DNA of 64,000 nucleotides, taken from positions 352,001-416,000 of the forward strand of contig CAWHBU010000003.1 of NCBI GenBank assembly GCA_963827685.1, given 5' to 3'. This DNA is from an uncultured delta proteobacterium (GTDB lineage: Bacteria > Desulfobacterota > BSN033 > UBA1163). Below, in pieces: positions 35-30,274 of the stretch. The position numbers and the translations under genes were made by a program. The notes below the pieces were generated by a model, which did no database searches, was not told the origin of the DNA, and saw nothing but the letters and a program-made list of their open reading frames with translations. Position 1 is the stretch's first letter; each line of letters starts with the position of its first letter.

Positions 35-451
35 ATGATCCATTCAGAAACGATTTCTTTAAGTACAAAAGGTTTTAGCGATATCCTGGACATTACCCAT
101 CATGTAGATGCCGTGACAGACCGCTCAAGAACTGAAAATGGATTGGTCACCGTATTCTGTCCTGGGTCGACAGGTGCTGTCACAACGATAGAATATGAAT
201 CGGGCGTACTGAGGGATTTACAAAGGGCGATAGAGAAGATCGCCCCATCCGATATCCCTTACGAACATGATAGACGATGGGGCGATGGCAATGGCTTTTC
301 TCATGTGAGGGCAGCTCTGATGAAACCCTCCCTCAGCATCCCAATGGTCAAGGGAAGATTGGCCTTGGGAACGTGGCAACAAATCGTTTTCATCGATTTT
401 GATAATCGAAGGAGGGAGAGAAATATTCTTGTTCAGGTGATAGGTGAATAA
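35..451 (+). CDS. yjbQ: YjbQ/UPF0047 family protein (secondary thiamine-phosphate synthase-like)
   Basis: 138 aa with 'DGNGFSHVRAAL' and 'LALGTWQQIVFIDFD' motifs typical of UPF0047. Confidence 0.9.
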   Translation: MIHSETISLSTKGFSDILDITHHVDAVTDRSRTENGLVTVFCPGSTGAVTTIEYESGVLRDLQRAIEKIAPSDIPYEHDRRWGDGNGFSHVRAALMKPSLSIPMVKGRLALGTWQQIVFIDFDNRRRERNILVQVIGE

Positions 452-571
452 TGTCGGATTATGAAGCAAGTTCTGAAAGGATCCTTAATTCCATACGAAT
501 TAGGTCAAGAGGTGCTACGATAACGCTTTTTCAGCACACCTTTTCGCTCTCTGGATTTTTTCTGTCGCTAT

Positions 572-1507
572 TCAGGTTGACTCCCCTTCCTTTACTTGGT
601 CAACACACTTTTGGAGGGCCTTGACGAGCTGAGATCGCATCTCTTCGTTTGAATGACTGGGTTTAAAACCGAGATCTCTTTCTGCCTTTTCCCAGCTTAA
701 ATCCCAGGCCTCGTTTAAAAAGGCAGGTCCCTGCCATTCATTGGATGGTATCAGCTGGATGGAGGAACTTGATTCTGTAAGACGCACAATCATTGCCCCG
801 ATCTCTTCCCACGTTAATAAAAGACTGCCTACATTGTAGATCTGGCCAGAGGGCCCAGGTTTTGTGATGGCTGACATCATGGCACTTCCCAAATCGGCCA
901 TGGTAACGAAAGTTCCCCCTGCACCATGAACCATTTCCAGAGGCTGGTGTTTTAACGACTTCTTTATCAAATCCCGTAAATGGCGCCCGCCAATATTGTC
1001 ACCGAAAGCCCACCAGAAACGGAAGATTGTCGCAGAAAGGCCTCGCTCTCTGCTGTAAAACTTGCAGAGCTCTTCTGCCGTGAACTTGCCTAACGCATAA
1101 AGAGGTTTACGTGCCTCTCCGAGAAGGCAGGGATGGGTCTCAGTGACCGGGTGCAGGGCAGCTCGGCCATAAACGGTTGCTGTGCTCGTGTAAACAAGGT
1201 GACGCACTCCTGCTGATGAAGCAGCTTCCAAGAGATGAAGATGACCCTCGATGTCCTCTTCAAAAATTGTATTCGGTTCATCAGCAAAACTCCAGGCCAA
1301 ATTTACGATCGCGTCAATCCCTCGGACCATTTCGCTGACGAGTGCCCCATCCGTTAAATTCCCCTGAAAATAGGGAACGGCAAGTTCCTCCATCTCTCTG
1401 GTTTTGGTGGCTTTGTCCAACACCACGACTTCATGACCACGATTGGAAAAATCTTTTATCAGATGTTTCCCAACTTCGCCTGCACCACCGACAATCAGAA
1501 CCTTCAT
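572..1507 (-). CDS. NAD-dependent epimerase/dehydratase (extended SDR)
   Basis: N-terminal GGAGEVG Rossmann motif and YALGK (YxxxK); SD AGAGGGG upstream. Confidence 0.85.
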   Translation of the reverse strand: MKVLIVGGAGEVGKHLIKDFSNRGHEVVVLDKATKTREMEELAVPYFQGNLTDGALVSEMVRGIDAIVNLAWSFADEPNTIFEEDIEGHLHLLEAASSAGVRHLVYTSTATVYGRAALHPVTETHPCLLGEARKPLYALGKFTAEELCKFYSRERGLSATIFRFWWAFGDNIGGRHLRDLIKKSLKHQPLEMVHGAGGTFVTMADLGSAMMSAITKPGPSGQIYNVGSLLLTWEEIGAMIVRLTESSSSIQLIPSNEWQGPAFLNEAWDLSWEKAERDLGFKPSHSNEEMRSQLVKALQKCVDQVKEGEST

Positions 1508-1527
1508 CTTCTTCCCCTCTTGATCAC

Positions 1528-1575
1528 AAAAAGAGGGGATGGGGAGCGGAATATTCTCCGCCCCTTTCCCCTCTT
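1528..1575 (-). terminator. Intrinsic terminator-like hairpin between oxlT and the epimerase gene
   Basis: Minus strand AAGAGGGGAAAGGGGCGGAGAATATTCCGCTCCCCATCCCCTCTT-TTT: GC-rich stem followed by a short U tract. Confidence 0.55.
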
Positions 1576-1680
1576 CAACTTACATAATCATTTTCTCTCA
1601 TTCTGAACAGAAGGTAGTTCTACCCTCGTATACGCTCCTGCCGAATATCGATGTCCTCTGCACCAGGAAATTTTTCCGCT

Positions 1681-3006
1681 TCAAGCTCCCTTTGGAACTT
1701 CCTTTGCAATTCTGCTTCTGATCACAGGCCTTAAGACGAAGAAGGCAAGGAGCGCAGCCATGGCGTCGAATAGGGCCGTGATGTAATAAGGAACAACGAA
1801 CGACCCAGCGAAGAACGCTGCCATCAGAGCGGCGCCATATCCTGCCAGAATGGAAGACACTCCTTTAGCGGTGTATAACATGCCGTAGTTGGCGGTGGCA
1901 TTTTTGGGTCCGAATACGTCACCGGTGATGGCAGAGAACAGTGCGTATATTTCGCCCCATGAAAGGAAGACGAAGGGCAAGACGAGGACGAACAATATCG
2001 GGCTACCATGGATTTGAGTCATCAGAAAGATGAGGAACGCCTCTACCGCAAAGGCAAGGGTCATCGTATATTCCCTGCCCAGTTTGTCAGAGATTGAACC
2101 CCACATAATCCTGGAGAAGGCGTTCGTGACCCCGGCCAGCGTAGCCGTAAAGGGAACGATTGCAAAACCCCACACTTTCGTATCGAATACATTGAGAGAC
2201 TTGGCAATCTGGGATAAATTTCCTGTGGTCATCAGGCCTCCCGTGGCGACAAAAAGGAACATGATGTACAAGAGATAAAACTCAGGCCTCGTCAGCGTTT
2301 GAGACCAGGTATAGTTCACCTTTGATTGAGCAACGGCCTTGGTCACCAGTTTTGAGCGCTGTTCCCATCCAGGAGGCGCCCATCCCGCAGGAGGATGACG
2401 CAGTATCAAGGCCATGATGAAAGCGATGATGCCCTGGGCGACCCCCCATACAGCCATTGCGCCGGCCCACCCCATACTGCTTATCGTCCCCGCAATGGGT
2501 ATGATGGTTAATGCTGCTCCGCCGCCAAATCCTGCGGCAGTTAGGCCGGCTGCCAATCCCCTTCTATCAGGGAACCATTTAACAGCATTCGCTACCGTTG
2601 AAATATAGATGATTCCTGCCCCGGTCCCGGCAATGAGGCCGTAATAGATGTAAAGTTCAAAAACAGACTTAGCGACTGTTCCTCCGAGTAGCCATCCAGC
2701 AAGAATGGCAATGGAGCCTAACATCATGAGCTTGCGGATACCGAACCTATCGACGAAGTATCCTGCTACCGGCACAGGCCATGTTTCAAACAGAATGAAC
2801 ATTGAAAATATGGCCGCTATTTTAGCGTAGGGCACCCCTGTGAATTGTTGCTTCATCCCTGGCGTAAAGAGGGTGAACGAATATTGATAATTCGATATGA
2901 CGATCATCGCGATGACACCAGCGAATAGTTGGACCCACCGATTACCAGCGAGTGAACCGTAGGTTTGTTTGGCAATGTCGACTTGAGTTGTGGTTGTGTC
3001 AGGCAT
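1681..3006 (-). CDS. oxlT: Oxalate:formate antiporter (OFA family MFS)
   Basis: About 12 hydrophobic segments; motifs 'NRWVQL', 'SNYQYSFTLF', 'KWFPDRRGLAAG', 'NYGMLYTAKG'; adjacent to oxalate oxidoreductase genes. Confidence 0.85.
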   Translation of the reverse strand: MPDTTTTQVDIAKQTYGSLAGNRWVQLFAGVIAMIVISNYQYSFTLFTPGMKQQFTGVPYAKIAAIFSMFILFETWPVPVAGYFVDRFGIRKLMMLGSIAILAGWLLGGTVAKSVFELYIYYGLIAGTGAGIIYISTVANAVKWFPDRRGLAAGLTAAGFGGGAALTIIPIAGTISSMGWAGAMAVWGVAQGIIAFIMALILRHPPAGWAPPGWEQRSKLVTKAVAQSKVNYTWSQTLTRPEFYLLYIMFLFVATGGLMTTGNLSQIAKSLNVFDTKVWGFAIVPFTATLAGVTNAFSRIMWGSISDKLGREYTMTLAFAVEAFLIFLMTQIHGSPILFVLVLPFVFLSWGEIYALFSAITGDVFGPKNATANYGMLYTAKGVSSILAGYGAALMAAFFAGSFVVPYYITALFDAMAALLAFFVLRPVIRSRIAKEVPKGA

Positions 3007-3053
3007 AGTCCTCCTCCTTTCTCAAAATGCCTAGGTTAGGGCTAAACGAACTC

Positions 3054-3089
3054 GGTTCAGAGTATTCCGCCAGCGGAATACTCTGAACC
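3054..3089. other. Perfect 17-bp inverted repeat between the beta-subunit gene and oxlT
   Basis: GGTTCAGAGTATTCCGC-CA-GCGGAATACTCTGAACC. Confidence 0.8.
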
Positions 3090-3103
3090 CGAATGGCAGA
3101 AAA

Positions 3104-5328
<2,225 letters not shown>

Positions 5329-5344
5329 GATTTTTCCTCCTTCA

Positions 5345-5674
5345 TTAGAAAGGTTTTTCAAGACGAACAACCCCGTCCTCAAAGTCAAGCTCTGGAACAG
5401 CACTAAGGGCATCCGCCGGACATTCGTGGATGCAGATCTGACAGCCTTTGCAAAACTTCCAGTTCCATTCCATCTTGTCTTCTTTTTCATTGTAGGACCA
5501 GCAGGAATCTGGACAGGCAATGTAACAAGTAAAACAACGGGTGCACTTCTCATGGTCAATCACCGGACGAACGATCCGCCAGTTTGAAGTGATAAAGAGT
5601 TCCTGCTGCCTCACTGGAGCAGGTGTGATCGCTCCGAAGGGAACTTCTCTATCTTTTGGGACTTTTATCGCCAT
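5345..5674 (-). CDS. OFOR delta subunit (2x[4Fe-4S] ferredoxin-like) of oxalate oxidoreductase
   Basis: CTRCFTCYIACP and CKGCQICIHECP; 'NWRIVRPVID' and 'VPELDF' resemble the OOR ferredoxin domain. Confidence 0.88.
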   Translation of the reverse strand: MAIKVPKDREVPFGAITPAPVRQQELFITSNWRIVRPVIDHEKCTRCFTCYIACPDSCWSYNEKEDKMEWNWKFCKGCQICIHECPADALSAVPELDFEDGVVRLEKPF

Positions 5675-5721
5675 AATCTTCTCCTTTCTCTATGCTTTCT
5701 TTAAATTCTTCTTTTCTTCCA

Positions 5722-5752
5722 CATTCTGCATTCCTCATTCCGCATTCGGCAT
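5722..5752. repeat. 7-nt periodic tandem array (CATTCNN)x4
   Basis: cattctg cattcct cattccg cattcgg cat, immediately after the gamma-subunit stop. Confidence 0.7.
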
Positions 5753-6390
5753 CAGCCTCCCCAGAAGTACTCTGAACGGGGTTTACGAAATTTTTGCATT
5801 TTCACTTCATTAAAACCGCGTTCCATCGCCGCGACGTTGGTAATGATTTTTGCAATATTCTCTTTTTTCGCCATCCCCGTCACCTTGGCCATTGCCCCGA
5901 GCAGGGGTGCGGCAATGCCGGCTCCAATTCCTGCCGTGTCCACCCCTCCTTCTGAACCGGAGAAGTCAACCGTCTTTATCCCGGAGATTCCATCTGCATC
6001 CACTGTGGCAATAGCGCCTAATATATCCGCATTGGGGATAAATTTAAGCATATAATCGATCGGCCGGCTCGTATTAATAATCAAGAGGCCGCCTTCAGGC
6101 ATCCCTTTGAGCACATTGATCCCCTTAACAATGGTGGGTTCAACGATCACCACCACATCAGGGTGAGCGTTCGTATAGAGATATTTCATCTCGATCTCTT
6201 CATCACTGATTCGCGCGTATTTCCGGGTTGTAACGAGCACACGGTCGGGCAGGTCTTCATAATTGTCAAAGGCCTGGACAAATCTGCCCTCCATCTTTGC
6301 TGCCTGAGCAAAGGCATTGGCCACATCGCGGGCCTCCTTATCCATGACCACTCCTCGTGTCCAAACTGTGATTTCAGTTACTTTAGCCAT
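5752..6390 (-). CDS. OFOR gamma subunit (domain III) of oxalate oxidoreductase
   Basis: Start MAKVTEITVWTRG after SD AAGGAGG; 'NYEDLPDR' and 'GIGAGIAAP' resemble the N-terminal part of the Moorella OOR delta chain. Confidence 0.85.
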   Translation of the reverse strand: MAKVTEITVWTRGVVMDKEARDVANAFAQAAKMEGRFVQAFDNYEDLPDRVLVTTRKYARISDEEIEMKYLYTNAHPDVVVIVEPTIVKGINVLKGMPEGGLLIINTSRPIDYMLKFIPNADILGAIATVDADGISGIKTVDFSGSEGGVDTAGIGAGIAAPLLGAMAKVTGMAKKENIAKIITNVAAMERGFNEVKMQKFRKPRSEYFWGG

Positions 6391-6455
6391 AAATAGATAC
6401 CTCCTTAAAGCAATGTTGGGCAATCAAACTGATCCATGAAATTAAACAATCGATA

Positions 6456-7193
6456 TCAGGAATGAGATTTCTCCGCCTGAAACCTATGAGCTTCCACACC
6501 TCCTTTCTTTTTCTTGAACAATACATCCTCCACCTTCTTTAGATGCCGGCGCATCGCCTGCCGAGCGCCTGTACCATTGCCATTCTTAATAGCCAACAGG
6601 ATCTCGCGATGACCCTGAAGGGATTTTTGTTTTCTCTCCTCGGTTTGAAGGTAATTTTCACGAGTCTTGCTAAGGAGGTCCAGAAGGGCAAGAAGAAGAC
6701 GCTCCAAAATCCTGTTTCGCGACATCCGGGCCAAACAGTGATGAAAATCGGAATCCGTTCGAATCGGGTTCATACCCTGGGCGACTTCTTTTTTTTGTTC
6801 CTCAAGGATCTCCTCGAGCTCAACGATTTCCTCAGGGGTTGCATTTTCTGATGCAAGTTGGGCCACTTCGGGTTCGATCATTTTGCGCAGAGAAAAGATG
6901 TCGATCAGATCATCCTTCTCATGAAAGAGGGAAGTGGCTAAAGGTTGTACCAGGGCTTCTTCATTAGAAGCGATCACGTAAGTTCCATCTCCCTGTCGTC
7001 TCTGAACAAGGTTCATTGCTTCAAGATAAAAAGTGGCCTCCCTTACAGAGGCGCGGGATACTTTGAAGGTATCGGCTAATTCTCTTTCAGTCGGAAGCTG
7101 GTCACCTTGCTTGAATTTCCCTCTTTGGATAAGATGATGGATTTGTCCTACGATATCCTCGTAGACTCGCTTTTTTTTAACCGCCTTCAACAT
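6456..7193 (-). CDS. FadR/GntR family transcriptional regulator
   Basis: wHTH 'LPTERELADTFKVSRASVREA' plus FCD domain 'DSDFHHCLA...HREILLAI'. Confidence 0.92.
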   Translation of the reverse strand: MLKAVKKKRVYEDIVGQIHHLIQRGKFKQGDQLPTERELADTFKVSRASVREATFYLEAMNLVQRRQGDGTYVIASNEEALVQPLATSLFHEKDDLIDIFSLRKMIEPEVAQLASENATPEEIVELEEILEEQKKEVAQGMNPIRTDSDFHHCLARMSRNRILERLLLALLDLLSKTRENYLQTEERKQKSLQGHREILLAIKNGNGTGARQAMRRHLKKVEDVLFKKKKGGVEAHRFQAEKSHS

Positions 7194-9322
7194 GGGGACA
7201 CCCCCTCCTTTTCCTGAACTTCTTTGAGTGCCTCTTCAAGATGAGAAGCAGTGACTAAAAGCTTTTTTGATTTGCTCTTCCCCGAGTCGTGGATCAATTC
7301 TCCGATGGCAAGCATGGTTGCCCTCCTCGCAATGAAGGCGATATGAGAACCCGTCATTCCATCTGTGCGTTTGGCCAACTCTGCCAGGTTTACATTGTCG
7401 GCCAAAGGCCTCTCTCTGGTGTGAACCCGAAAGATCTCTAACCGCTCTTCCTCGTCGGGGAAGGGAAAGTTAAGAATATAGTCAAGCCGTCCGGCCCGCG
7501 TTAAGGCGGGGTCGAGCAGATCTTCACGATTCGTCGCTCCGAGCACAAGGACCTGAGAAAGATCACTCAGGTTATCCAGCTCATTAAAAAACTGACTGGC
7601 CATGCGTTCGACCGCCCCGCCTTCATTTCCATAGCCACGGGTGGTCACCAGGGCATCGATTTCATCAAAAAACAGGATGCAGGGGGCCGACTGTTTCGCT
7701 TTTTTAAAGATCTGATGCAGGGCTTTTTCTGATTCTCCAAGCCACTTTGAGAAAAGGATGGGACCGCTGATGGAAATGAAATTCAGGCCCGTTTCTCCCG
7801 CCAAAGCCTTTGCCATAAGCGTCTTCCCAGTGCCCGAAGGTCCGGAGAAAAGAACCCCTCTCGGAGGGAGTACTTTACCTTCGTCAAAAAGCTCCGGAAA
7901 TTTGTGGGGCCAATCTACAATGGAGATGAGGGTTTCTTTAATCCTCTTCAATCCGCCGATATGGTGCCACTGGACCTTAGACCTCTCCGTATAAAATTCA
8001 CGCGTTGCTGTGGGTTCAATCTCACGGAGGGCCGCCAAAAAGTCCTCCATCGTGATCTCCAGATGATCCGGGTTGACGAGCATGGCATCGAGATGATTGT
8101 CGCTCTCGAGAGAAAGATATCTCCTTAAAGCCACCATTCCCGCCTCTTTGCATAAAGCCTCTAAATCCGCTCCGACAAAGGCATGGGTAATCTGGGCAAG
8201 GCGTTCCAAATCGACATCAGAGGCCAGGGGCATACGGCGGCTGTGAATCCTAAGGATGGCGTGGCGGCCTTCGGCGTTCGGAACGGAGAGGGCCATCTCA
8301 CGGTCAAAGCGACCTGGTCGTCTGAGAGCAGGGTCGATCATCTCCGGGATGTTGGTGGCCCCAATGACAATCACCTGTCCACGGGAGACCATCCCATCCA
8401 TCAAGGCCAGGAGCTGGGCAACCACTCTTTTCTCGACATCTCCTAGGACCTCTGCGCGTTTTGGGGCGATAGCATCGATTTCGTCGATAAAGATGATGCT
8501 GGGGGCATTGCGGGTTGCATCTTCAAAGATCTCCCTTAGGCGGGCTTCACTTTCACCATAAAATTTATGGATGATTTCCGGTCCGTTCACCCGAATGAAA
8601 TGGAGTTTTGTCTCGCTGGCGATGGCGCGGGCAATGAGGGTTTTCCCTGTCCCAGGAGGACCATAGAGGAGTACCCCCTTGGGTGCTTCGACTCCCAGTT
8701 TTTCAAAAACCTCCACATAGCGCAAGGGGAGCTCGACCATCTCGCGAATAAGCTTTAATTCTTTTTCAAGCCCACCGACGTCCTCGTAAGAAACATGAGA
8801 AGGTGCCTCGATGGAAATATCTGGTCTTTTTATCAGGAATTTGGTCTTCAGGTTAATCAAAACTCCCCCTGATGGAGAAGTCGCTTCGACAAGAAAAAAA
8901 CGGTCCTTCCCTGTTAAAAAGGGGACATTGATTTTATCCCCAATCAGTATAGGTAACCCCTGGAGGATTTTGGGAAACTGCTCCAGCTCGCTTCCTTCTG
9001 GGACGACGTTTGTTAAATCGAGAGGGGTAATGAGGACCGTTGTGGCGATTTTATAGGGGATTTTTTTTATTCTTACAATTTCCCCCAAGTTTACCTCGGC
9101 ATTGCTGCGAGTGATCCCGTCGATCTGAATTATTTTTTTTCCATAATACTCTGGGAAGGTTCCGGTGATCCTGGCGACTGTTTTTTTCTCTCCACTCATC
9201 TCGATCAGATCGCCGAGGACACCTCCTAACGCCTTAATATCCTCTGGATCGAGGCGCGCCAATCCCTTTCCGACATCTTCAGCCAAGGTTTCAGCCACCT
9301 TTAATTCAATAAAACCGCCCAC
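7187..9322 (-). CDS. CDC48/p97/VAT-family AAA+ ATPase (N-domain plus two AAA modules)
   Basis: N-domain 'DVGKGLARLDP...IDGITRSNA'; Walker A GPPGTGKT and GPSGTGKT; Walker B FIDEID and FFDEID; SRH 'DPALRRPGRFD'; GTG start after GAGGGAG inferred. Confidence 0.9.
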   Translation of the reverse strand: MGGFIELKVAETLAEDVGKGLARLDPEDIKALGGVLGDLIEMSGEKKTVARITGTFPEYYGKKIIQIDGITRSNAEVNLGEIVRIKKIPYKIATTVLITPLDLTNVVPEGSELEQFPKILQGLPILIGDKINVPFLTGKDRFFLVEATSPSGGVLINLKTKFLIKRPDISIEAPSHVSYEDVGGLEKELKLIREMVELPLRYVEVFEKLGVEAPKGVLLYGPPGTGKTLIARAIASETKLHFIRVNGPEIIHKFYGESEARLREIFEDATRNAPSIIFIDEIDAIAPKRAEVLGDVEKRVVAQLLALMDGMVSRGQVIVIGATNIPEMIDPALRRPGRFDREMALSVPNAEGRHAILRIHSRRMPLASDVDLERLAQITHAFVGADLEALCKEAGMVALRRYLSLESDNHLDAMLVNPDHLEITMEDFLAALREIEPTATREFYTERSKVQWHHIGGLKRIKETLISIVDWPHKFPELFDEGKVLPPRGVLFSGPSGTGKTLMAKALAGETGLNFISISGPILFSKWLGESEKALHQIFKKAKQSAPCILFFDEIDALVTTRGYGNEGGAVERMASQFFNELDNLSDLSQVLVLGATNREDLLDPALTRAGRLDYILNFPFPDEEERLEIFRVHTRERPLADNVNLAELAKRTDGMTGSHIAFIARRATMLAIGELIHDSGKSKSKKLLVTASHLEEALKEVQEKEGVSPC

Positions 9323-9347
9323 AGAAAATGCTTCTCCCTCGATGAGC

Positions 9348-9405
9348 AAATTGGTATAAAGATCAGACCAATTTCATATTAGAATATTTCTGCCCATTCT
9401 GTCAA
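9348..9405 (-). promoter_or_regulatory. sigma70 promoter with overlapping FadR-type operator for the oxalate operon
   Basis: Minus strand TTGACA-N18-TAATAT followed directly by the palindrome AAATTGGT-N11-ACCAATTT (9348-9374), which has FadR/PdhR/LldR-like TTGGT..ACCAA arms. Confidence 0.65.
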
Positions 9406-9547
9406 GACATTTTGCGTTATGCCAGATTATCGTGTGCTTAAGAGGCGAAGGGGTAAAAATGAAAGACGGCGTCGGGGCGAGCGGGATACGACCGGAATTC
9501 GCATTTCTTGACTAAGATTTTCTGCGGCGAAGAAACGGGGATGTTTT

Positions 9548-10777
9548 TCATTCATAGCGAAGAGCTTCGATGGGGTTGAGCAGAGAGGCTTTCCGTGCCG
9601 GATAGAATCCAAAAAATACGCCTACCGACCCAGAAAAGAGAAAAGCCAAAAGGACAGCTTCGACTGAAAAGAGGGTCGGCCATTGGGTAAAACTGGATAA
9701 GATGAGGGTCCCTGCCACTCCAATCCCAATTCCCACTGTTCCCCCAATCAGACTGAGAACCAAAGATTCAATGAGGAATTGAAGGAGGATATCCCGTCCC
9801 TTTGCACCGACGGCGATTCGAATGCCAATCTCTCTTGTTCTCTCCGTGACGGAGACAAGCATAATGTTCATAATCCCGATACCCCCGACAATCAAAGAGA
9901 TGGAAGCAATGGCACCCAGGAGAAGGGACATAACATTCGCTGATTGCTCAGCGGTCGACATAATCTCTGTGAGATTCCGCACCGTAAAGTCATTATCCTG
10001 CTTCGGTTGAATATGATGCCTCTGTCGAAGAAGATCATTAATTTGATTCTCCACATCCTTCATCACCTCCGGTTGCGTCGCTTGCACCATGATCACTCTC
10101 ACCATCCCCGGGAATTGCATTCCAAAGAGTTTTTTTTGGGCCGCGGTCAAGGGGACGATGATCGTATCGTCCTGATCCTGCCCCTGAGTCGATTGTCCCT
10201 TCGGAGCAAGTACTCCGATCACGGTGAAAGGAACCATCTTAATACGAATGACTTGGCCAGTCGGATCGATCCCTCCAAAGAGATTATCTACCACGGTCTG
10301 TCCAAGAAGACAGACCTTTGTCGCTCCGTCTATATCCTGTTGTGTAAATGGGCGACCCGAAGAAAGGGACCAGTCTCTGATTTCGAGGGCCTCGGGGGTT
10401 GTTCCGTTAACAATGGTCGACCAGTTCTGGTTCCCGAAGACTACCTGTGCTCCCCCGCCGAGGTAGGGCGCTACATACTTGACCGCTGGAATCTCGTTTA
10501 GGATTGCTTTGGCATCATCCACTCTTAATGTTGGAACTGTTCCTGATCCGAACCGAAGTCCGCCGCTTGTTGAGCTCCCTGAGAGGACGATTAGGAGGTT
10601 CGATCCCATACTGGCAATCTGCTCGGCGATTCGCTTCTTTGCCCCTGAGCCCACAGCAATCATAGCAATCACCGCACCCACACCGATAATGATCCCCAAC
10701 ATGGTCAGGGCCGAGCGCATCTTATTGACCGTGAGCGCCCTTAGGGCAATCCGAAGGCTTGCGAGAAGACGTGTCAT
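9548..10777 (-). CDS. MacB/FtsX-family ABC transporter permease
   Basis: 'RSALTMLGIIIGVGAVIAM' and 'GGIGIMNIMLVSVTERTREIGIR' signatures. Confidence 0.92.
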   Translation of the reverse strand: MTRLLASLRIALRALTVNKMRSALTMLGIIIGVGAVIAMIAVGSGAKKRIAEQIASMGSNLLIVLSGSSTSGGLRFGSGTVPTLRVDDAKAILNEIPAVKYVAPYLGGGAQVVFGNQNWSTIVNGTTPEALEIRDWSLSSGRPFTQQDIDGATKVCLLGQTVVDNLFGGIDPTGQVIRIKMVPFTVIGVLAPKGQSTQGQDQDDTIIVPLTAAQKKLFGMQFPGMVRVIMVQATQPEVMKDVENQINDLLRQRHHIQPKQDNDFTVRNLTEIMSTAEQSANVMSLLLGAIASISLIVGGIGIMNIMLVSVTERTREIGIRIAVGAKGRDILLQFLIESLVLSLIGGTVGIGIGVAGTLILSSFTQWPTLFSVEAVLLAFLFSGSVGVFFGFYPARKASLLNPIEALRYE

Positions 10778-16581: not shown

Positions 16582-18122
16582 TGTGTTAGCAAAGTAGAAA
16601 TGTCCCCATTAACTGCTTAAGTTAAAATGTCCCCATGGAACAGGAGAAGATACTCATGGGGCAGAGGGAGTTAAAGAGGTGGCATCTGATGGAGATCGTA
16701 AAGGTAGGGAAGATCACCTTGAGGGAGGCTGGAGAGAGGATAGGTGTGTCCTACCGTCAGGCGAAGCGGATTGGGCAAGCGATCCGGGAGAGAGGGATCA
16801 AAGCCTTGGTGCATGGTAACAGGGGACGACCTTCGAACCACCGGCTCAAGGAGTCCTTACGAGAAAGGGTATTAAAGCTGTCGGAAGAGGTTTACTGGGA
16901 CTTTAACGATACCCATTTTACGGAGAAACTTCGGGAGTGCGAAGGGATCGATTTGAATCGAGAGACGGTGAGGAAGTTACGGCGGGAGGCGGGGATGGCA
17001 CCCAAGCGCAGGCGTCGGGGACCTAAGCATCGAAAGCGACGGGAGCGAATGGCTCAAGAAGGATGGATGGTCCTCTGGGATGGGAGTCCCCACCCCTGGT
17101 TTGGCCGAGACCTTCCACCTTGCTGTCTGATGGCTGCCATCGATGATGCGACCGGGAAACTGCTGGCCGCCCGTTTCTTTCCCTTTGAAGGTTCCGCAGG
17201 CTATTTCTGGCTTCTTAAAGAGATGATTAAAAAATATGGAATCCCAATGATGATCTATCAGGATCGCCACGGGTCGTTGCATCGGAATGACCCTCACTGG
17301 AGCTTGGAAGAGCAACTCGCTGGCCGACAGGAACCGACTCAAGTCGGATTAGCTCTCGAAGCCTTGGGGATTGAGCCGATCTCGGCTCTTTCTCCTCAGG
17401 CCAAAGGAAGGATAGAAAAACTCTTTGCCACCCTGCAGGATCGTCTGGGAGCAGAACTCCGTTTAAAAGAAATTGTAACGATGGAAGAGGCCAATCGCTT
17501 TTTACAATCAACCTTTTTAAAAGACTTTAACCGTCGCTTTGCCGTCAGACCCAGAGAATCCCAAAAAGCCTGGAGAGAAGTCCCAAACCATCTGGACCTG
17601 GATCGAATCATCAGCTTTCGCTATACGGCTACGGTCGGCAACGATAATACGGCTCGGCTGGGAGGATTGGTTCTCGATATTCCCCCTGGCCCTCAAAGAA
17701 GATCCTATGCGAAGCTCAAGGTGGAAGCTCGGCAGCTTCTCAACGGATCTTGGAGAATCTACGCTCAAGATCAGTTGATTGCGAAACATCCTCCTACTTC
17801 CCTCCGGGAACCGGTGAGAGCTCTTCCCCGAAAGAAACACCATGCAAAAGGAGTTAAAGATTACCACTGGGTCTATCTCGCTTCAGCACCCTCCAGGGAA
17901 GGTGACCCTTACCCCCTGCTCATCGAACATCGTTGATTGTAGCGCAACCTGGCGATTCACATTTCGCTTGTTGCCCATTAATAGGGATCTCTTATGAGAG
18001 CTCACTTAAAAAAAAGAAACTCAAATTGAAGTTCATCCACTCACTCAAGGGTCAAGATCAAAACCCTTGGAGGGGACATTTTCACGTTGCAGTTAAGGGG
18101 ACATATTGACTTCGCTTAAACA
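16582..18122 (+). mobile_element. IS1202-family (ISNCY) insertion sequence, 1541 bp, with 16-bp target site duplication
   Basis: Terminal IRs TGTGTTAGCAAAGTAGAAATGTCCCC / TGTTTAAGCGAAGTCAATATGTCCCC, each with a second internal AAATGTCCCC copy; CGACAATAATCAAATT duplicated at 16566-16581 and 18123-18138. Confidence 0.92.
16635..17936 (+). CDS. IS1202/ISNCY DDE transposase
   Basis: HTH, 'HGNRGRP', 'WDGSPHPW', 'AIDDATG', 'YQDRHG', 'SPQAKGRIEKLFATLQDRL'. Confidence 0.93.
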   Translation: MEQEKILMGQRELKRWHLMEIVKVGKITLREAGERIGVSYRQAKRIGQAIRERGIKALVHGNRGRPSNHRLKESLRERVLKLSEEVYWDFNDTHFTEKLRECEGIDLNRETVRKLRREAGMAPKRRRRGPKHRKRRERMAQEGWMVLWDGSPHPWFGRDLPPCCLMAAIDDATGKLLAARFFPFEGSAGYFWLLKEMIKKYGIPMMIYQDRHGSLHRNDPHWSLEEQLAGRQEPTQVGLALEALGIEPISALSPQAKGRIEKLFATLQDRLGAELRLKEIVTMEEANRFLQSTFLKDFNRRFAVRPRESQKAWREVPNHLDLDRIISFRYTATVGNDNTARLGGLVLDIPPGPQRRSYAKLKVEARQLLNGSWRIYAQDQLIAKHPPTSLREPVRALPRKKHHAKGVKDYHWVYLASAPSREGDPYPLLIEHR

Positions 18123-18191: not shown

Positions 18192-19913
18192 ATGATAACA
18201 TCGCTAAAAGATAGAATCCGGATCGCTTCGGGTCATGGAACAGCTGACCTTCTAATCAAAAACGGAAGGGTCGTGGATGTCTTCTCAGGTCAGATTGAAA
18301 AAAAAGATGTGGCCATTTTCGGAGGCGTGATCATAGGTTTCGGAGATTATCAAGCCAAAGAGATCGTCGATGTGAAGGGCGATTTCCTCTGTCCTGGTTT
18401 GATCGATGGTCATGTCCACATTGAATCGAGCATGGTAACTATCCCTGAATTCGCTCGAGCTGTTCTTCCTAACGGAACCACCTCTGTTGTCGCCGATCCG
18501 CACGAAATTGCCAATGTCCTTGGTCGAAAGGGCATTCGCTTTATGGCTGAATCGGCGAGAGATGTTCCTCTAAATGTTTTCATTATGCTCCCTTCCTGCG
18601 TTCCAGCCACTCATATGGAAACCTCTGGAGCTATCCTTAAGGCAACCGATTTGAAACCTCTGTTTAAAGAACCCTGGGCCATTGGATTGGCAGAGATGAT
18701 GAATTTCCCAGGCGTCATCTTCAGGGATCCAGAAGTTCTCAAAAAAATTGAAATGGCAAAGGGAAAGCGAATGGATGGCCACGCCCCCATGCTTTCGGGA
18801 AAGGGGCTTTATGCTTATCTCACTGCAGGAATCAGATCTGACCATGAATGTACCACTCTTAAAGAGGCCAAGGAGAAATTGAACAATGGCATGTGGATTA
18901 TGATCAGAGAAGGGACGACCGCAAGAAATCTCAGAAGTCTCCTTCCTCTTATCAATCTCAAGAATTCAAGGCGATTTCTTCTTGTCACCGACAACCGTCA
19001 CCCCAAAGAACTCCTTAAAGAGGGCCATATCGATTCCATGGTCAGGCAGGCAATCCGATGGGGAACAGACCCCATCTTAGCTATACAAATGGCAACGCTC
19101 AATACTGCGGAATATTTCAGGCTTGATGACCTCGGAGCCATTGCTCCAGGTTATCGAGCCGACATCGTCAGTTTCGATCATCTCGGGCGGTTTCGAATTC
19201 ATAAGGTCTTTAAAGATGGGATATTAGTTGCTGAGAATGGTAAAATGCTCTTCCCTCCCATCCGAAAAGTGAAGGGTCCTAAAATGAGGGGATCTGTCCG
19301 AATCAAGCCTCTTGAGAAAGATGTCTTTTTACTTCGAAGTGACCAGCCTTTCGCTAAAATCATCCAACTGATACCAGACCAAATTGTCACGAAAAAAGTA
19401 ATGAAGAAGATCCTCTTGAAAGAGGGGGTGGCCCATCCCAATATCAAAGAGGATATCCTTAAGATTGCAGTGGTTGAACGGCATAAAGCCACAGGGAATA
19501 TCGGGATTGGTTTTGTCCAGGGGTTTGGCTTAAAGAAGGGAGCCATCGGTTCGTCCGTAGCTCACGATTCACATAACCTCGTCATTGTGGGAGCCAATGA
19601 TCAGGATATGTTGAAAACAGTGGAAATCATTCAAGCCATGGGAGGCGGATTGACAGTAGTTTTGAACGGAAAAGTAATAGCTTCCCTCCCCTTGCCCATC
19701 GCGGGTCTGATGTCAGAAGCCCCGGTGCCCAAAGTCCACCTTCAGTTAGAAGCCCTTCATCGCGCTGCCAAAAATCTTGGGTGTCAAATTCCAGACCCAT
19801 TTATGACGCTTTCTTTTCTATCACTGCCAGTGATTCCAGAATTAAAAATCACCGATAAAGGTCTGGTTGATGTAAACCAGTTCAAACTTGTTCCGCTGTT
19901 TGGAGAAGACTAA
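18192..19913 (+). CDS. ade: Adenine deaminase
   Basis: DGHVHIESS, DPHEIANV, EMMNFPGV, DGHAP, SDHE, AHDSHN motifs. Confidence 0.93.
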   Translation: MITSLKDRIRIASGHGTADLLIKNGRVVDVFSGQIEKKDVAIFGGVIIGFGDYQAKEIVDVKGDFLCPGLIDGHVHIESSMVTIPEFARAVLPNGTTSVVADPHEIANVLGRKGIRFMAESARDVPLNVFIMLPSCVPATHMETSGAILKATDLKPLFKEPWAIGLAEMMNFPGVIFRDPEVLKKIEMAKGKRMDGHAPMLSGKGLYAYLTAGIRSDHECTTLKEAKEKLNNGMWIMIREGTTARNLRSLLPLINLKNSRRFLLVTDNRHPKELLKEGHIDSMVRQAIRWGTDPILAIQMATLNTAEYFRLDDLGAIAPGYRADIVSFDHLGRFRIHKVFKDGILVAENGKMLFPPIRKVKGPKMRGSVRIKPLEKDVFLLRSDQPFAKIIQLIPDQIVTKKVMKKILLKEGVAHPNIKEDILKIAVVERHKATGNIGIGFVQGFGLKKGAIGSSVAHDSHNLVIVGANDQDMLKTVEIIQAMGGGLTVVLNGKVIASLPLPIAGLMSEAPVPKVHLQLEALHRAAKNLGCQIPDPFMTLSFLSLPVIPELKITDKGLVDVNQFKLVPLFGED

Positions 19914-22489: not shown

Positions 22490-24973
22490 TTAACTTGCGG
22501 CCGATAACTTTTTTTCAGAATCTTTCCTCCGTGGAATCCCCAGATCCTTCTCCACTTGCAAAATCCTGTCGGTCGTCTTGATGACCGTGTCAGGATTGAG
22601 GGAGATGCTGTCGATGCCGCAGCGGACCAGAAACTCGGCGAATTCTGGATAGTCGCTGGGAGCTTGTCCGCAGATGCCAATCTTCCTTCCGTTCTTCTTG
22701 GCCCTTTCAATCACTAACTGAACCATTTTTTTCACAGCCGGATCCCGCTCATCGAAGATATGAGAAACTTTCTCTGAATCACGATCCAATCCCAACATCA
22801 ACTGGGTCAGATCATTCGATCCAATGGAAAACCCATCAAAAATCTCAGCGAATTCATCCGCCATGATCACATTACTGGGGACCTCACACATCACATAGAT
22901 TTCGAGGCCATTTTCCCCCTGGATCAGACCGTGCTTTCTCATCTCCGCAATCACCAATCTCCCCTCCTCCACCGTCCTGCAGAAGGGGATCATCAATTTT
23001 ACATTGATCAGACCCATTTTATCCCGAACCTTTTTCATCGCCATGCATTCGAGAGCAAACCCTTCCTGATAAGACTCGTCATAGTACCGGGAGGCTCCTC
23101 GGAAACCAATCATGGGGTTGTCTTCGACAGGCTCAAATTCGATTCCACCGATGAGATTGGCGTACTCATTGCTTTTAAAATCACTCAATCTCACTATGAC
23201 ATCTTTAGGATAAAAGGCAGCAGCAATCTTGGCCACCCCTTGAGCCAACCTATCAACGAAGAAGGCTTCCTTATCTTCATACCCGATGGTCAACTGTTCA
23301 ATCTCCTTTTTAGCATGACTATCGCTGATTGAATCAAATCGGACAAGAGCCATTGGATGGATCTTAATGTAGTTATTGATGATAAATTCTACCCTGGCCA
23401 GACCCACCCCATCGTTGGGAATAAAGGAGAGGTGGAAGGCATTGTCCGGATTTCCCACGTTCATCATGATTTTTGTTTGAGGCTTCTCCAGATGTGCCAT
23501 ATCGAAGTGCCTCACCTCATAATCGAGGATCCCTTCGAAAACCAATCCCGTCTCCCCTTGTGCACAACAAACGGTGGCACTTCGATAGTCTTTCAAAACC
23601 TCGCTTCCATCTCCTGTTCCCACCACACAGGGAACGCCCAGTTCCCGGCTGATGATGGCCGCATGACATGTCCTCCCTCCGCGGTCGGTCACAATGCCCG
23701 AGGCAATTTTCATGATGGGTTCCCAATCCGGGTCTGTCATCTGGGTAACCAATATCTCGCCCTTCTTAAACTTCTCTATCTCTCTCGCACTGGTGATGAC
23801 ATTGATGGGCCCAGCGCCAATCTTTTCACCGACACTCTTCCCCTGTACCAGCACCCTTCCTTTCTCTTTTAAAGAATAGGTCTCCAAAACGTTCATGGCT
23901 CCTTGGGATTTTACCGTCTCTGGCCTGGCTTGAAGGATAAAGAGCTGTTGGGTAATACCGTCCTTGGCCCACTCAATATCCATGGGCATGTAGACCCCTG
24001 CTTTTTTCGAATAGTGCTCTTCGATCTTTATCCCCCATTGTGCAAGCTTAATAATCTCCTCGTCATCCAAGATGAAATCCGCCCTTTCTTGTGCGGAGAC
24101 AGGAACATTCTTGGTTGATCCCTCTCCCTCGAGCGTGTAGATCATTTTGATCTCTTTCGTCCCGAGGGTTTTCTGAATGATGGGTTTATAATTTCCTTTG
24201 ATGCAGGGTTTAAATACATAAAATTCGTCGGGATTGATGACTCCCTGAACAATATTCTCTCCCAATCCATAGGAACCTGTGATGTACACCACGTCCGGAA
24301 AGCCGGATTCCGTATCAATGGTGAACATCACCCCAGAACAGGCTTTATCCGACCGCACCATCTTCTGAATTCCGATGGAGAGAGCGACCTGAAAGTGGTC
24401 AAACCCCTTGTGGGTTCTGTAAGAGATGGCACGGGTGGTAAACAGTGAGGCAAAACATCGTTTGCAGGCCTGAACAAGGGCATATTCCCCGCGAATATTA
24501 AGATAGGTCTCCTGCTGACCGGCAAAACTTGCACCCGGAAGGTCCTCGGCTGTGGCGCTGCTACGGACTGCCACATCCGTATCCTCTCCATATTCCTTGC
24601 ACAACTTCCGATAGGCTTTAACAACCTCTTCAACGATCTCCCTGGGAAACTCCAAACTATGGATAAGCCTCCGGACACGGCTTCCCCTCTCTGAAAGGTT
24701 TTCCACATCCTCGACGTCGAGACCCGTCAGTATCTCTTGAATACCTTCTTTAATCTTTGTTTTACCCTTGACATCATGCCAGTCCTGTACAATCCCTTCA
24801 TCCAAAAGGGAATGGTAGGCATTAACGGTTATAGCAAATCCATTAGGAACGGTCACCCCTTGTTTCGTCAGTTCCTTCCGCATCTCCCCCAAGGAGGCAT
24901 TCTTTCCTCCTACAACGGGAAGATCGTTAAGTCCGATTTCGTCAAACCAAAGGATATAAGGTTTTTTAGCCAT
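22490..24973 (-). CDS. ppsA: Phosphoenolpyruvate synthase (pyruvate, water dikinase)
   Basis: VGGKNASLGEM, VAVRSSATAED, ILQARPETV, GGRTCHAAI (phospho-His), GFSIGSNDL. Confidence 0.96.
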   Translation of the reverse strand: MAKKPYILWFDEIGLNDLPVVGGKNASLGEMRKELTKQGVTVPNGFAITVNAYHSLLDEGIVQDWHDVKGKTKIKEGIQEILTGLDVEDVENLSERGSRVRRLIHSLEFPREIVEEVVKAYRKLCKEYGEDTDVAVRSSATAEDLPGASFAGQQETYLNIRGEYALVQACKRCFASLFTTRAISYRTHKGFDHFQVALSIGIQKMVRSDKACSGVMFTIDTESGFPDVVYITGSYGLGENIVQGVINPDEFYVFKPCIKGNYKPIIQKTLGTKEIKMIYTLEGEGSTKNVPVSAQERADFILDDEEIIKLAQWGIKIEEHYSKKAGVYMPMDIEWAKDGITQQLFILQARPETVKSQGAMNVLETYSLKEKGRVLVQGKSVGEKIGAGPINVITSAREIEKFKKGEILVTQMTDPDWEPIMKIASGIVTDRGGRTCHAAIISRELGVPCVVGTGDGSEVLKDYRSATVCCAQGETGLVFEGILDYEVRHFDMAHLEKPQTKIMMNVGNPDNAFHLSFIPNDGVGLARVEFIINNYIKIHPMALVRFDSISDSHAKKEIEQLTIGYEDKEAFFVDRLAQGVAKIAAAFYPKDVIVRLSDFKSNEYANLIGGIEFEPVEDNPMIGFRGASRYYDESYQEGFALECMAMKKVRDKMGLINVKLMIPFCRTVEEGRLVIAEMRKHGLIQGENGLEIYVMCEVPSNVIMADEFAEIFDGFSIGSNDLTQLMLGLDRDSEKVSHIFDERDPAVKKMVQLVIERAKKNGRKIGICGQAPSDYPEFAEFLVRCGIDSISLNPDTVIKTTDRILQVEKDLGIPRRKDSEKKLSAAS

Positions 24974-25069: not shown

Positions 25070-25172
25070 GGGTGGTTCTCATCTCATGTGATTTGATTTG
25101 CAAATGAGGAATTGATTTTTGAATAAATTATAATTAATATAGGACGTTATCCTAGAGAAGGAAGTGAAATCC

Positions 25173-28528: not shown

Positions 28529-30274
28529 TCAGACCTCAAGGGGAAGGATTTTCCGATCTCTTAATCTGACATATCCCTGATGAGTAATTCTCAGGTGAGG
28601 GATGGCAGGTGTTCCGAGAGTATCGATGGTGAGCATAGGCTTTTCCCATTTGACTCCGTTCTCCCTTAGGAATTCTTCGAGTTGTCTTACCTCTTCTCGC
28701 ACCACCTCCATCGATTTTAACGATACCAATCCGCAGAGAGGAGCAGGAAATTCAGCGACAACCTCCCCTCCCACCGCATAAACGCCTCCGCCGCCAATTT
28801 CTTTGAGCCTTTCAATGACCGTCTCCATCGATCGGGTATCGCACCCCACGATAATCATATCCGTTGTATCCCAGCACATCGTAGATCCATAGGCTCCCTT
28901 TTGAAGACCAAATCCTTTGAGAAGCCCCATGAAGGCCTTTCCGTTACCCACCCGATCTATGGCAAGGATCATGATGACGTCCTCCGATTCACCAGGGATC
29001 TCAAGATCAATCATCTTCTCCTGGGTCACCAGTCTTGTTACAAGTTCCATCACCCTTACCTTCCCTCGATTCGGGAGTGGAGGGACCGTGTAGTTAGAAA
29101 CCTTAACCATATGAAACATATATTCCGGAAAAAAAACTTTCTTTGGTTCAACCATCGATTTACCGTCTCTGTAAATAATCTTTCCGTCGCACATCACAAG
29201 CTGGGGGGAATAATCATGCGGTGAAGGGATGATCACAATATCCGCCATCTTCCCGGGGGAAAGAGAGCCGATAAGGTGATTCAGGCGGAAGTGGTCCGCT
29301 ACATTAATGGTAACCATTTGAAAAGTTATGGCCGGCGAAACTCCAAGCTTCAGCGCCTTTTTCAACGCGGCGTCAAGATAGCCCTCCTCAAGGAATCCAT
29401 CAGGGTCCACGCCGTCGGTGGCAAGGATCAATCTTCTAAAATCGACCTTCTTCCTGAAAATATCCTTGACTCCATCCAATTCTTTTCTTACGGACCCTTC
29501 CCTAATCATAACCGAGTAGCCGAGTCTCAGTCTTTCCAATACCTCATCTTCGTTGATGGGCTCATGACAGGACGAGACTCCGAAACAGGTATATGCCTGA
29601 AGCTTTCTTCCTCTGGCGCCTGCGCTGTGCCCTTCGATGATCTTCCCAAGTCCGAGAGCCATGGAGACAAGTTCTCTCACTCTCTCCCCCTGTCTTCCCT
29701 CCAAAAAAATGTTACCCCAGTAAATCTCACCTACGCCCAGGCACCTTGGGTCCTTCAGCAAAGGCAGGAGTTCTTCATTCGTGGGGGCATTAATTTCTTC
29801 GGATGGAGTGAGACCGCACATCGCCGGGATGGTGTAGTAGAACCTGATCGGCTGCTTTTCTAATCCTCTTGCCACGTATTCGATGCCGTCTTTGCCTACT
29901 ATCGGCGCGAACTCCATCGTTTCGGTAACAACCGTGGTGGTCCCGCCAGGGATGACATGCCTTGTGAATTCTTCGATCCCCGACCTGTTACTAATGGTGT
30001 GCGTGTGGCCGTCGATCAACCCGGGAAGAAGAACCATGCCATCTGCGTCGATCACCAGGGTCTTCTCTCCTTTGCATGGATCATGGTCAGGACCAACATA
30101 GGCGATCATTCCATCCTTGATCCAGATGGACTGTTTCTTGATAAACTCTCTTGTGAAAACATTGAAGACTGTACCATGGGTGATGATCGTATCAGGAGGA
30201 ACATTTCCTAAAGCCACTTCACTTAGCGTTTTTCTCTTTTCGATATCATTCATGAAAGGTTTCATAACAAACAC
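28529..30274 (-). CDS. Divergent adenine deaminase-family amidohydrolase (start uncertain)
   Basis: PGLIDGHTH, EGHS, SCHE, IREGS, ATDG, 'PGKMADIV'; Ade-like C-terminal domain. Confidence 0.8.
   Translation of the reverse strand: MFVMKPFMNDIEKRKTLSEVALGNVPPDTIITHGTVFNVFTREFIKKQSIWIKDGMIAYVGPDHDPCKGEKTLVIDADGMVLLPGLIDGHTHTISNRSGIEEFTRHVIPGGTTTVVTETMEFAPIVGKDGIEYVARGLEKQPIRFYYTIPAMCGLTPSEEINAPTNEELLPLLKDPRCLGVGEIYWGNIFLEGRQGERVRELVSMALGLGKIIEGHSAGARGRKLQAYTCFGVSSCHEPINEDEVLERLRLGYSVMIREGSVRKELDGVKDIFRKKVDFRRLILATDGVDPDGFLEEGYLDAALKKALKLGVSPAITFQMVTINVADHFRLNHLIGSLSPGKMADIVIIPSPHDYSPQLVMCDGKIIYRDGKSMVEPKKVFFPEYMFHMVKVSNYTVPPLPNRGKVRVMELVTRLVTQEKMIDLEIPGESEDVIMILAIDRVGNGKAFMGLLKGFGLQKGAYGSTMCWDTTDMIIVGCDTRSMETVIERLKEIGGGGVYAVGGEVVAEFPAPLCGLVSLKSMEVVREEVRQLEEFLRENGVKWEKPMLTIDTLGTPAIPHLRITHQGYVRLRDRKILPLEV

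Follow-up and report, generated by a model that had tools for sequence, protein, structure and literature searches.

A predicted oxalate oxidoreductase operon with separate gamma and delta genes and a Cdc48-type ATPase gene in an uncultured Thermodesulfobacteriota

A stretch of 64,000 nt from a metagenome-assembled genome (MAG) of an uncultured Thermodesulfobacteriota, referred to below as the window, was analysed. Genes were called from a listing of open reading frames (ORFs) and their translations, and domains were assigned with Pfam. Between positions 9349 and 572, the window carries eight minus-strand genes in the order CDC48-GntR/FCD-gamma-delta-alpha-beta-MFS-epimerase, the same order as that given in an earlier note on this DNA. 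It is highly probable that these genes constitute an oxalate-catabolic operon. In the proposed pathway, an OxlT-like carrier of the major facilitator superfamily (MFS) would take up oxalate, and a four-polypeptide oxalate oxidoreductase (OOR) containing thiamine pyrophosphate (TPP) and [4Fe-4S] clusters, presumably an (alpha-beta-gamma-delta)2 assembly, would oxidise it to two CO2 without coenzyme A (CoA). The two low-potential electrons released would pass through three clusters to ferredoxin. With respect to the domains of 2-oxoacid:ferredoxin oxidoreductases (OFORs), alpha would comprise domains I-II, beta domain VI, gamma domain III and delta domain V. A GntR regulator of the FCD type would control the unit, probably at a palindrome over the promoter, and a Cdc48/VAT-type unfoldase, encoded first in the operon, would be a conserved companion of the enzyme.

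The four enzyme subunits were compared with all PDB sequences by phmmer, and the OOR of Moorella thermoacetica (5C4I) was taken as the reference. Alpha matched chain 5c4i_A with 514.8 bits, without gaps over residues 3-394, whereas its next match, the four-subunit pyruvate:ferredoxin oxidoreductase (PFOR) 9bt4, reached 205.3 bits. Beta matched 5c4i_C, also without gaps, with 506.9 bits versus 264.7 bits for the same PFOR. Gamma and delta aligned with the two halves of the 315-residue Moorella chain 5c4i_B, gamma with residues 13-207 (205.9 bits) and delta with residues 226-315 (105.1 bits). The alignment with the Moorella subunits, which the earlier note had suggested, therefore agrees with its assignment of the enzyme. 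Alpha and gamma passed the corresponding OOR equivalog models (NF045791, 581.1 bits, cut-off 500, and NF045790, 243.9 bits, cut-off 230). Gamma remained below the cut-off of the PorC model TIGR02175 (62 versus 81 bits), and delta passed the generic PorD model TIGR02179 (79.2 bits, cut-off 60.05). The full OFOR domain set (I, II, III, V and VI) was found with Pfam.

The passages available from PMC5020499 describe the Moorella enzyme as (abc)2, with domains III-V in subunit c, and name Arg31a, located in a unique YPIRP motif, Arg109a and Asp116a. Those available from PMC12654022 give Arg31-alpha, Asp116-alpha, Glu154-gamma and Asn143-beta as the literature-curated catalytic residues. Since the alpha and beta alignments were gapless, the Moorella residue numbering could be transferred directly. 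Alpha of the window carries FPIRP at positions 28-32, which includes Arg31, and, in the 108-118 region, Arg109 and the loop DPPGDFG (Asp116, Phe117), which is identical to that of Moorella in the PDB alignment. The FPIRP motif and the downstream Arg and Asp, the oxalate-binding residues pointed out in the earlier note, are thus present. The counterparts of Moorella Glu154 and Asn143 are both present, as Glu147 of gamma and Asn153 of beta.

The conservation of these residues was followed in a locus set obtained by scanning prokaryote genomes, one per species, and retaining the best 80 of 163 stretches with an alpha relative (57-96% identity to the window alpha). The gamma glutamate was kept in 74 of 74 locus gammas, and the beta asparagine was kept in 75 of 76 locus sequences. 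All 12 cluster cysteines, sufficient for three [4Fe-4S] sites, are kept in the window enzyme. Four of them are in beta, where they are conserved (Cys34, 37, 62 and 235), and eight are in delta (positions 44, 47, 50, 54, 75, 78, 81 and 85), where they were invariant in 75 of 75 sequences. Beta also contains the GDGG...DN motif for TPP. It is highly likely, judging from these features, that the four-gene enzyme is an OOR that would oxidise oxalate to two CO2 without CoA.

Compared with Moorella OOR (EC 1.2.7.10; 5C4I, 5EXD, 5EXE; NF045790-NF045792), the window enzyme has the same domain set, Arg31 within xPIRP, Arg109, the Asp116-Phe117 loop, the gamma glutamate, the beta asparagine and the three cluster sites. 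It differs in that domains III and V, which form a single chain in Moorella, are carried by separate polypeptides, in that beta has approximately 10 extra residues at each end, and in residue 28 of alpha; in addition, the Moorella host is a thermophilic acetogen, whereas the window host belongs to Thermodesulfobacteriota. With the four-subunit OFORs (PFOR and VOR encoded by porCDAB or porGDAB; the PFOR of Methanosarcina acetivorans, 9BT4), the window enzyme shares the gamma-delta-alpha-beta order and the division of domains among four polypeptides. Structures of these enzymes ranked second among the relatives of the window alpha, beta and delta, and third among those of gamma. However, their scores were far lower than those of OOR (205, 265, 36.5 and 67.6 bits), and four-subunit PFOR and VOR have YPITP with Thr31, lack the DPPGDFG loop and use CoA. 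In the passages of the literature on oxalate oxidoreductase that were available, there was no purified OOR other than that of Moorella and no four-subunit OOR.

The position of alpha among its relatives was studied in a tree. A profile-free scan of 1.84 billion representatives yielded 3839 alpha relatives at E <= 0.001. The window alpha was aligned with 98 of the listed representatives (340-480 aa long) and with 71 full-length locus alphas, giving 170 rows; two rows without the motif region were dropped, and FastTree was run on the remaining 168. [YF]PIRP, Arg109 and DPPGDFG occurred together in 75 rows, and five further rows had Arg31 with a variant loop. The DPPGDFG loop was found in none of the 88 rows without Arg31, 80 of which had Thr31 and 8 another residue. 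The 80 Arg31 alphas occupied one side of a single branch with a Shimodaira-Hasegawa-like support of 99, a separation that none of 500 label shuffles equalled. The window alpha lay within this clade beside Thermodesulfobacteriota MAGs, and its nearest neighbour was the alpha of locus L003 (96% identity). As the earlier note had anticipated for an OFOR alpha tree, it grouped with the OOR clade and not with PFOR or VOR. The five variant loops of the clade were DDPGAFG (three sequences), DDPGNFA and DQPGSFG; these alphas make up a side group of OOR-like enzymes, which may lack the Asp116 mechanism.

The earlier note had also suggested a lineage that is apparently not a Firmicute, and this held, as the GlyS protein encoded in the window was 90% and 87% identical to Thermodesulfobacteriota MAG proteins. 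Near-identical DNA (at least half of the sampled words) was found in three sequencing runs, annotated as metagenome, freshwater sediment metagenome and peat metagenome, one of which is possibly the source sample. The host is an uncultured member of Thermodesulfobacteriota from anoxic sediment or peat. Among other sampled genomes, an OOR alpha at E <= 1e-100 was detected in just 1 of 150 from this phylum and in none of 4 from the same family. This sparse occurrence would be expected if the OOR cluster were a recent horizontal import, in which case the host lineage would say little about the oxalate oxidisers of its habitat. Import would also be in line with the mixing of phyla in the alpha tree and with a gene for an ISNCY-family transposase (16635-17936 (+), 370 bits against a cut-off of 250) approximately 7 kb from the operon promoter. 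However, the GC content is even over the operon and its flanks (0.47-0.53), and in the nearest named relative the identities of GlyS (90%) and gamma (92%) fit vertical descent at that depth. Recent import of the cluster is thus considered unlikely.

The host genome (5.23 Mb in 14 contigs, 94.5% complete) has 14 POR_N matches but one OOR set; its other OFOR alphas share no more than 36% identity with that of the operon and carry YPITP. The models for oxc (oxalyl-CoA decarboxylase) and frc (formyl-CoA transferase) remained below their cut-offs in this genome (233 versus 739 bits and 187 versus 504 bits, respectively), and OOR is therefore the only recognisable oxalate route in it. Acetyl-CoA synthase, a selenocysteine (TGA-containing) formate dehydrogenase and dsrA are present in the genome. 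Therefore, the reduced ferredoxin could donate its electrons to the Wood-Ljungdahl pathway, to the production of formate or to the reduction of sulfite.

The MFS protein was compared with carriers of known function. It scored 370.9 bits with the oxalate/formate antiporter model TIGR04259 (cut-off 335) and 298 bits with the lactate-carrier model, which was below the cut-off of 320. Its best structure was OxlT (8hpj, 183 bits), whereas a lactate carrier reached 154 bits. According to the available passages of PMC10070484, Arg272 and Lys355 of OxlT bind oxalate. Counterparts of both basic residues, and of Gln34, Tyr35, Tyr124, Trp324 and Tyr328, are kept in the window protein, so that it resembles OxlT of Oxalobacter formigenes (8HPJ/8HPK) in these residues as well as in the equivalog model passed. 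An MFS gene lies downstream of OOR in 31 of 63 loci. The gene is therefore regarded as that of a putative oxalate carrier of the OxlT family, and this assignment shares the high probability of the operon as a whole. Antiport with formate would need the formate dehydrogenase of the cell, because OOR makes CO2 and not formate.

Several points weigh against this interpretation of the enzyme, the operon and the host. Beta scored 566.5 bits with its OOR equivalog model NF045792, which is 23.5 bits below the cut-off of 590. Delta scored 109.5 bits with NF045790, for which the cut-off is 230, because this model spans the whole fused chain. Position 28 of alpha is Phe, whereas Moorella has Tyr, although Phe28 is common to 24 of the 80 Arg31 rows. 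Two of the nine OxlT pocket residues differ in the MFS protein, which has Phe in place of Tyr150 and Tyr in place of Trp352. The Moorella alpha itself is not among the 168 rows of the tree, and its placement was derived from the PDB phmmer and NCBIfam scores. The MAG shows 8% contamination, and dsrA was found on two short contigs (C11:3-884 and C12:3-884, 443 and 442 bits), each time with an internal TAA; the two copies could be duplicated or strain-variant fragments. Finally, oxalate turnover and CoA independence are predicted from five conserved active-site positions and the overall similarity.

It was considered whether the enzyme could be an OOR-like OFOR whose substrate in the cell is a small 2-oxoacid or dicarboxylate other than oxalate (glyoxylate or oxamate, for example), with the operon not serving primarily for oxalate. 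The beta score slightly below the OOR cut-off and the replacement of Tyr28 would be compatible with such a substrate, and Moorella OOR was reportedly found by Pierce et al. in 2010 to turn over a few other 2-oxoacids slowly. However, all the known oxalate-contacting and switch-loop residues are kept in the window enzyme, and its similarity to Moorella OOR is as high as the similarity within the clade. Furthermore, the transporter encoded alongside scores above the cut-off of the oxalate/formate antiporter model and is closer to OxlT than to the lactate carrier. Another substrate is accordingly very unlikely, and OOR is retained as the assignment of the enzyme.

The earlier note had pointed out that domain III and the ferredoxin domain are encoded by two genes here, each with its own Shine-Dalgarno (SD) box, and both statements were borne out. 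The gamma and delta genes are in different frames and are separated by a spacer of 77 nt, and an SD box (AGGAGG or AAGGAG) precedes the ATG of each of gamma, delta and alpha by 6-9 nt. The contrast with Moorella OOR, described in that note as the only characterised example and as fused, also stands. However, the implied rarity of the four-subunit architecture does not. Six of the 80 loci are interrupted by a contig end, which leaves 74 informative loci of other species. Gamma and delta were split in 73 of these and fused in one, a Bacillota MAG (L077). In every split pair, gamma ends with a true stop codon (TAA, TAG or TGA), and 13-192 nt of spacer, usually with an SD box, lead to a start codon; the two frames are different in 49 pairs and the same in 24, as chance predicts.

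The protein databases gave the same picture. Protein clusters of 212-214 aa with 88% or more identity to the window gamma numbered at least 120; JGI names many of these relatives 'oxalate oxidoreductase subunit delta', and NCBI uses this name for one from a Thermodesulfobacteriota MAG. A search with the fused L077 protein returned 48 fused clusters of 309-338 aa, three of which were named (Moorella sp. Hama-1, a Bacillota MAG and a Chloroflexi MAG). This search also returned split forms of 201-236 aa, named OOR delta by NCBI, in Sporomusa species and Acetonema longum, which are cultured members of Negativicutes, so that Firmicutes are included among the organisms with the split layout. The split layout is thus the majority form of OOR and corresponds to the canonical gamma-delta-alpha-beta order of four-subunit OFORs, and four-subunit OOR is already annotated automatically by the NCBI and JGI pipelines.

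A tree of the gamma domain was built with FastTree from 179 rows and rooted on seven PorC sequences; some of its branches are long. The first branch was an all-split clade of 19 rows, the Sporomusa/Acetonema group. Two mostly fused groups came next (9 fused and 3 split rows; 40 fused and 2 split rows), and the window was located in an all-split clade of 98 rows. At least five changes between the split and fused states are needed on this tree. The topology suggests that the split of gamma and delta is ancestral and that the Moorella fusion is derived.

That the split is an artefact of a truly fused gene, due to a frameshift, mis-assembly or a read-through stop, is extremely improbable, since the sole support for it is the precedent of the fused Moorella chain, whereas the spacer and SD box between the window genes, the stops of all three kinds, spacers and frames at the 73 other loci, the many separate gamma clusters and the lack of any insertion or deletion over 3000-9420 in four metagenome runs of three studies (29, 29, 25 and 11 of 30 bins covered) rule out a read-through or frameshift origin.

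The first gene of the operon encodes a Cdc48-type protein, which scored 821.6 bits with TIGR01243 (cut-off 802.65) and had a VAT entry (5g4g, 824.5 bits) as its best structure. In translation, both rings have Walker A and B motifs and aromatic pore loops (KFYG and KWLG). Like archaeal VAT/Cdc48 (Thermoplasma VAT; 5G4G, 5G4F and 5VC7), the protein thus consists of a double-psi-barrel N domain followed by D1 and D2 AAA rings with aromatic pore loops. In archaeal Cdc48, the HbYX motif docks the protein to the 20S proteasome. A C-terminal HbYX was not found in the translated window protein, which ends in ...EKEGVSPC. Further differences from the archaeal proteins are that the window protein is bacterial, that it is encoded first in an OOR operon and that it is one of two paralogues in its genome. 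The other gene (C3:674407-676503, in a 991-aa open frame) scored 933 bits with TIGR01243, and its product is 49.6% identical to the operon protein. Since this second paralogue is encoded elsewhere in the genome, the operon protein appears to be a dedicated paralogue.

The presence of CDC48 was checked at those 62 loci whose sequence extends for 4.2 kb or more on the upstream side of alpha. A homologue was located directly upstream of OOR in 55 of them, in at least six phyla, a count that bears on the adjacency of Cdc48 and OOR and not on function. By phylum, the pairing was found in 27 of 27 Thermodesulfobacteriota, 5 of 5 Methylomirabilota, 3 of 5 Myxococcota, 2 of 3 Nitrospirota, 3 of 7 Pseudomonadota and 1 of 1 Deferrimicrobiota loci, as well as in 14 of 14 unranked ones. 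The seven loci without it comprised four betaproteobacterial, two Myxococcales and one Nitrospirota locus. The fused Bacillota locus L077 has both GntR and Cdc48 neighbours.

Because Cdc48 is paired with OOR in 55 of the 62 loci across these phyla and also at the fused-type Bacillota locus, it is conceivable, if somewhat short of an even chance, that it is a dedicated OOR helper retained since before the fusion of gamma and delta. It might act as an assembly or cofactor-loading factor, or as an 'activase' that frees dead-end enzyme, for which Rubisco activase would be the analogue. A subunit tail that would mark the Cdc48-linked OORs was sought; a Pro-rich C-terminal tail of beta was present in loci both with and without Cdc48 and gave no signal. 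No publication that connects Cdc48 with OOR came up in literature searches; the one paper returned concerned the PFOR of Thermoanaerobacter kivui.

A different arrangement was observed in Betaproteobacteria, where five OOR loci (L039, L048, L051, L052 and L076) have neither Cdc48 nor GntR upstream. In the first four of them, a frame of 733-785 aa located 1-2.5 kb downstream of beta matches both alpha (27-36%) and beta (28-31%), and in L076 the alpha (31%) and beta (37%) matches are in two overlapping frames downstream of beta. From these matches, the betaproteobacterial downstream frame is assigned as a fused two-domain OFOR.

The GntR/FCD regulator passed no specific NCBIfam equivalog model; the best models below threshold were NanR, LldR and PdhR. 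Of the 62 loci, 53 have a GntR gene upstream of OOR. Regulators of the FadR subfamily combine a winged-helix GntR domain with an all-helical FCD domain and have palindromic operators of the TGGT...ACCA type. Within positions 300-9800, TTGACA-18-TAATAT was the best sigma-70-like match (10 of 12 consensus positions). The palindrome AATTGGT-N11-ACCAATT follows it directly and ends at the TTG start of CDC48. The same or a nearly identical 24-mer palindrome precedes CDC48 in 11 other loci, where 12-22 nt separate it from the gene start, and in L036, where the distance is 124 nt. In more distant loci, boxes of the sequence TGGTNNNACCA were found; 18 of the 33 exact sites in 882 kb fell within -220..+20 of CDC48, GntR or gamma starts, and these 18 sites were distributed over 13 loci. 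A second operator before gamma was not found, the palindrome being the sole TTGGT-N9-13-ACCAA site in the 64-kb window and the first 12 kb containing no exact TGGTNNNACCA. Together with the domains of the regulator, the palindrome fits a candidate operator of the FadR subfamily.

In each of two metagenome runs, from two studies, one contig joins position 6432 to position 6724 and omits the 291 nt between them. These comprise ~89 codons at the 3' end of the GntR/FCD gene together with some of the spacer that separates it from gamma; the matching flanks are only 30 and 41 nt. This junction may represent a population variant with a truncated regulator, or cross-mapping from a relative.

The features of the locus are collected in Table 1. 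The start of alpha was set at the ATG at 5328, which follows an AGGAGG box and gives a protein colinear with the Moorella alpha. The listed ORF 4135-5559, with a TTG at 5559, over-extends alpha and would overlap delta. For CDC48, either the TTG at 9349 or the in-frame GTG at 9322 is possible as the start, and the GntR/FCD gene overlaps the CDC48 stop by 7 nt. A perfect 16-bp hairpin without a T-rich tail is located between beta and the transporter gene; as a guess, it could be an attenuator or RNA-stability element that sets the ratio of enzyme to transporter. Whether the epimerase gene belongs to the operon is uncertain. It starts 173 nt after the transporter gene, 30 of 57 loci have a homologue no more than 6.5 kb downstream, and no NCBIfam model reached its cut-off with the protein.

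Table 1. Genes and putative regulatory elements of the OOR locus in the window.
Feature	Position	Strand	Basis
Cdc48/VAT-type double-ring AAA+ ATPase	7187..9349	-	Pfam CDC48_N, CDC48_2, two AAA domains
GntR regulator of the FadR subfamily, with FCD ligand domain	6456..7193	-	Pfam GntR 7e-20, FCD 6e-31
Predicted OOR gamma (OFOR domain III), 212 aa	5752..6390	-	Pfam POR
Predicted OOR delta, 109 aa (OFOR domain V; ferredoxin with 2 x [4Fe-4S])	5345..5674	-	Pfam Fer4 pair
Predicted OOR alpha (domains I and II), 397 aa	4135..5328	-	Pfam POR_N + PFOR_II
Predicted OOR beta (domain VI; TPP site, proximal [4Fe-4S])	3104..4105	-	Pfam TPP_enzyme_C
Putative OxlT-family (OFA) MFS oxalate transporter	1681..3006	-	Pfam MFS_1, TIGR04259
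NAD-dependent epimerase/dehydratase-family (SDR) gene	572..1507	-	Pfam PF01370 1.9e-32
Promoter-like site TTGACA-18 nt-TAATAT	9376..9405	-	Consensus match only, upstream of first gene
Palindrome AATTGGT-N11-ACCAATT, candidate GntR/FCD operator	9349..9373	.	Between -10 box and CDC48 start
Perfect 16-bp hairpin between beta and transporter gene	3054..3089	-	Without T-rich tail

Farther along the window, there are two genes of the adenine-deaminase family (18192-19913 (+) and 28529-30274 (-)), one of which is over and the other under the equivalog cut-off. Between them lies a divergent pair encoding phosphoenolpyruvate synthase and pyruvate,phosphate dikinase (22490-24973 (-) and 25164-28001 (+)).

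As a single annotation, the operon is ordinary and already named by public pipelines, and its Cdc48 partner is a more interesting feature than the four-subunit layout. If the helper role proposed for Cdc48 is true, OOR would be the first defined client for bacterial Cdc48 proteins, here without a proteasome partner. The characterised OOR has so far come from one thermophilic acetogen, and the window together with its 73 split relatives indicates that the common natural form has four subunits. The split OOR would also provide a natural test of the importance of the linker between domains III and V. The predicted enzyme is spread among anaerobes of soils, peat, wetlands and groundwater, in phyla and classes that include Thermodesulfobacteriota, Nitrospirota, Methylomirabilota, Myxococcota and Betaproteobacteria. 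In the passages available from PMC8062136, OOR is left out of the survey, and surveys restricted to oxc and frc would overlook this pathway. The distribution of OOR therefore bears on which organisms may consume plant- and fungus-derived oxalate in anoxic settings.

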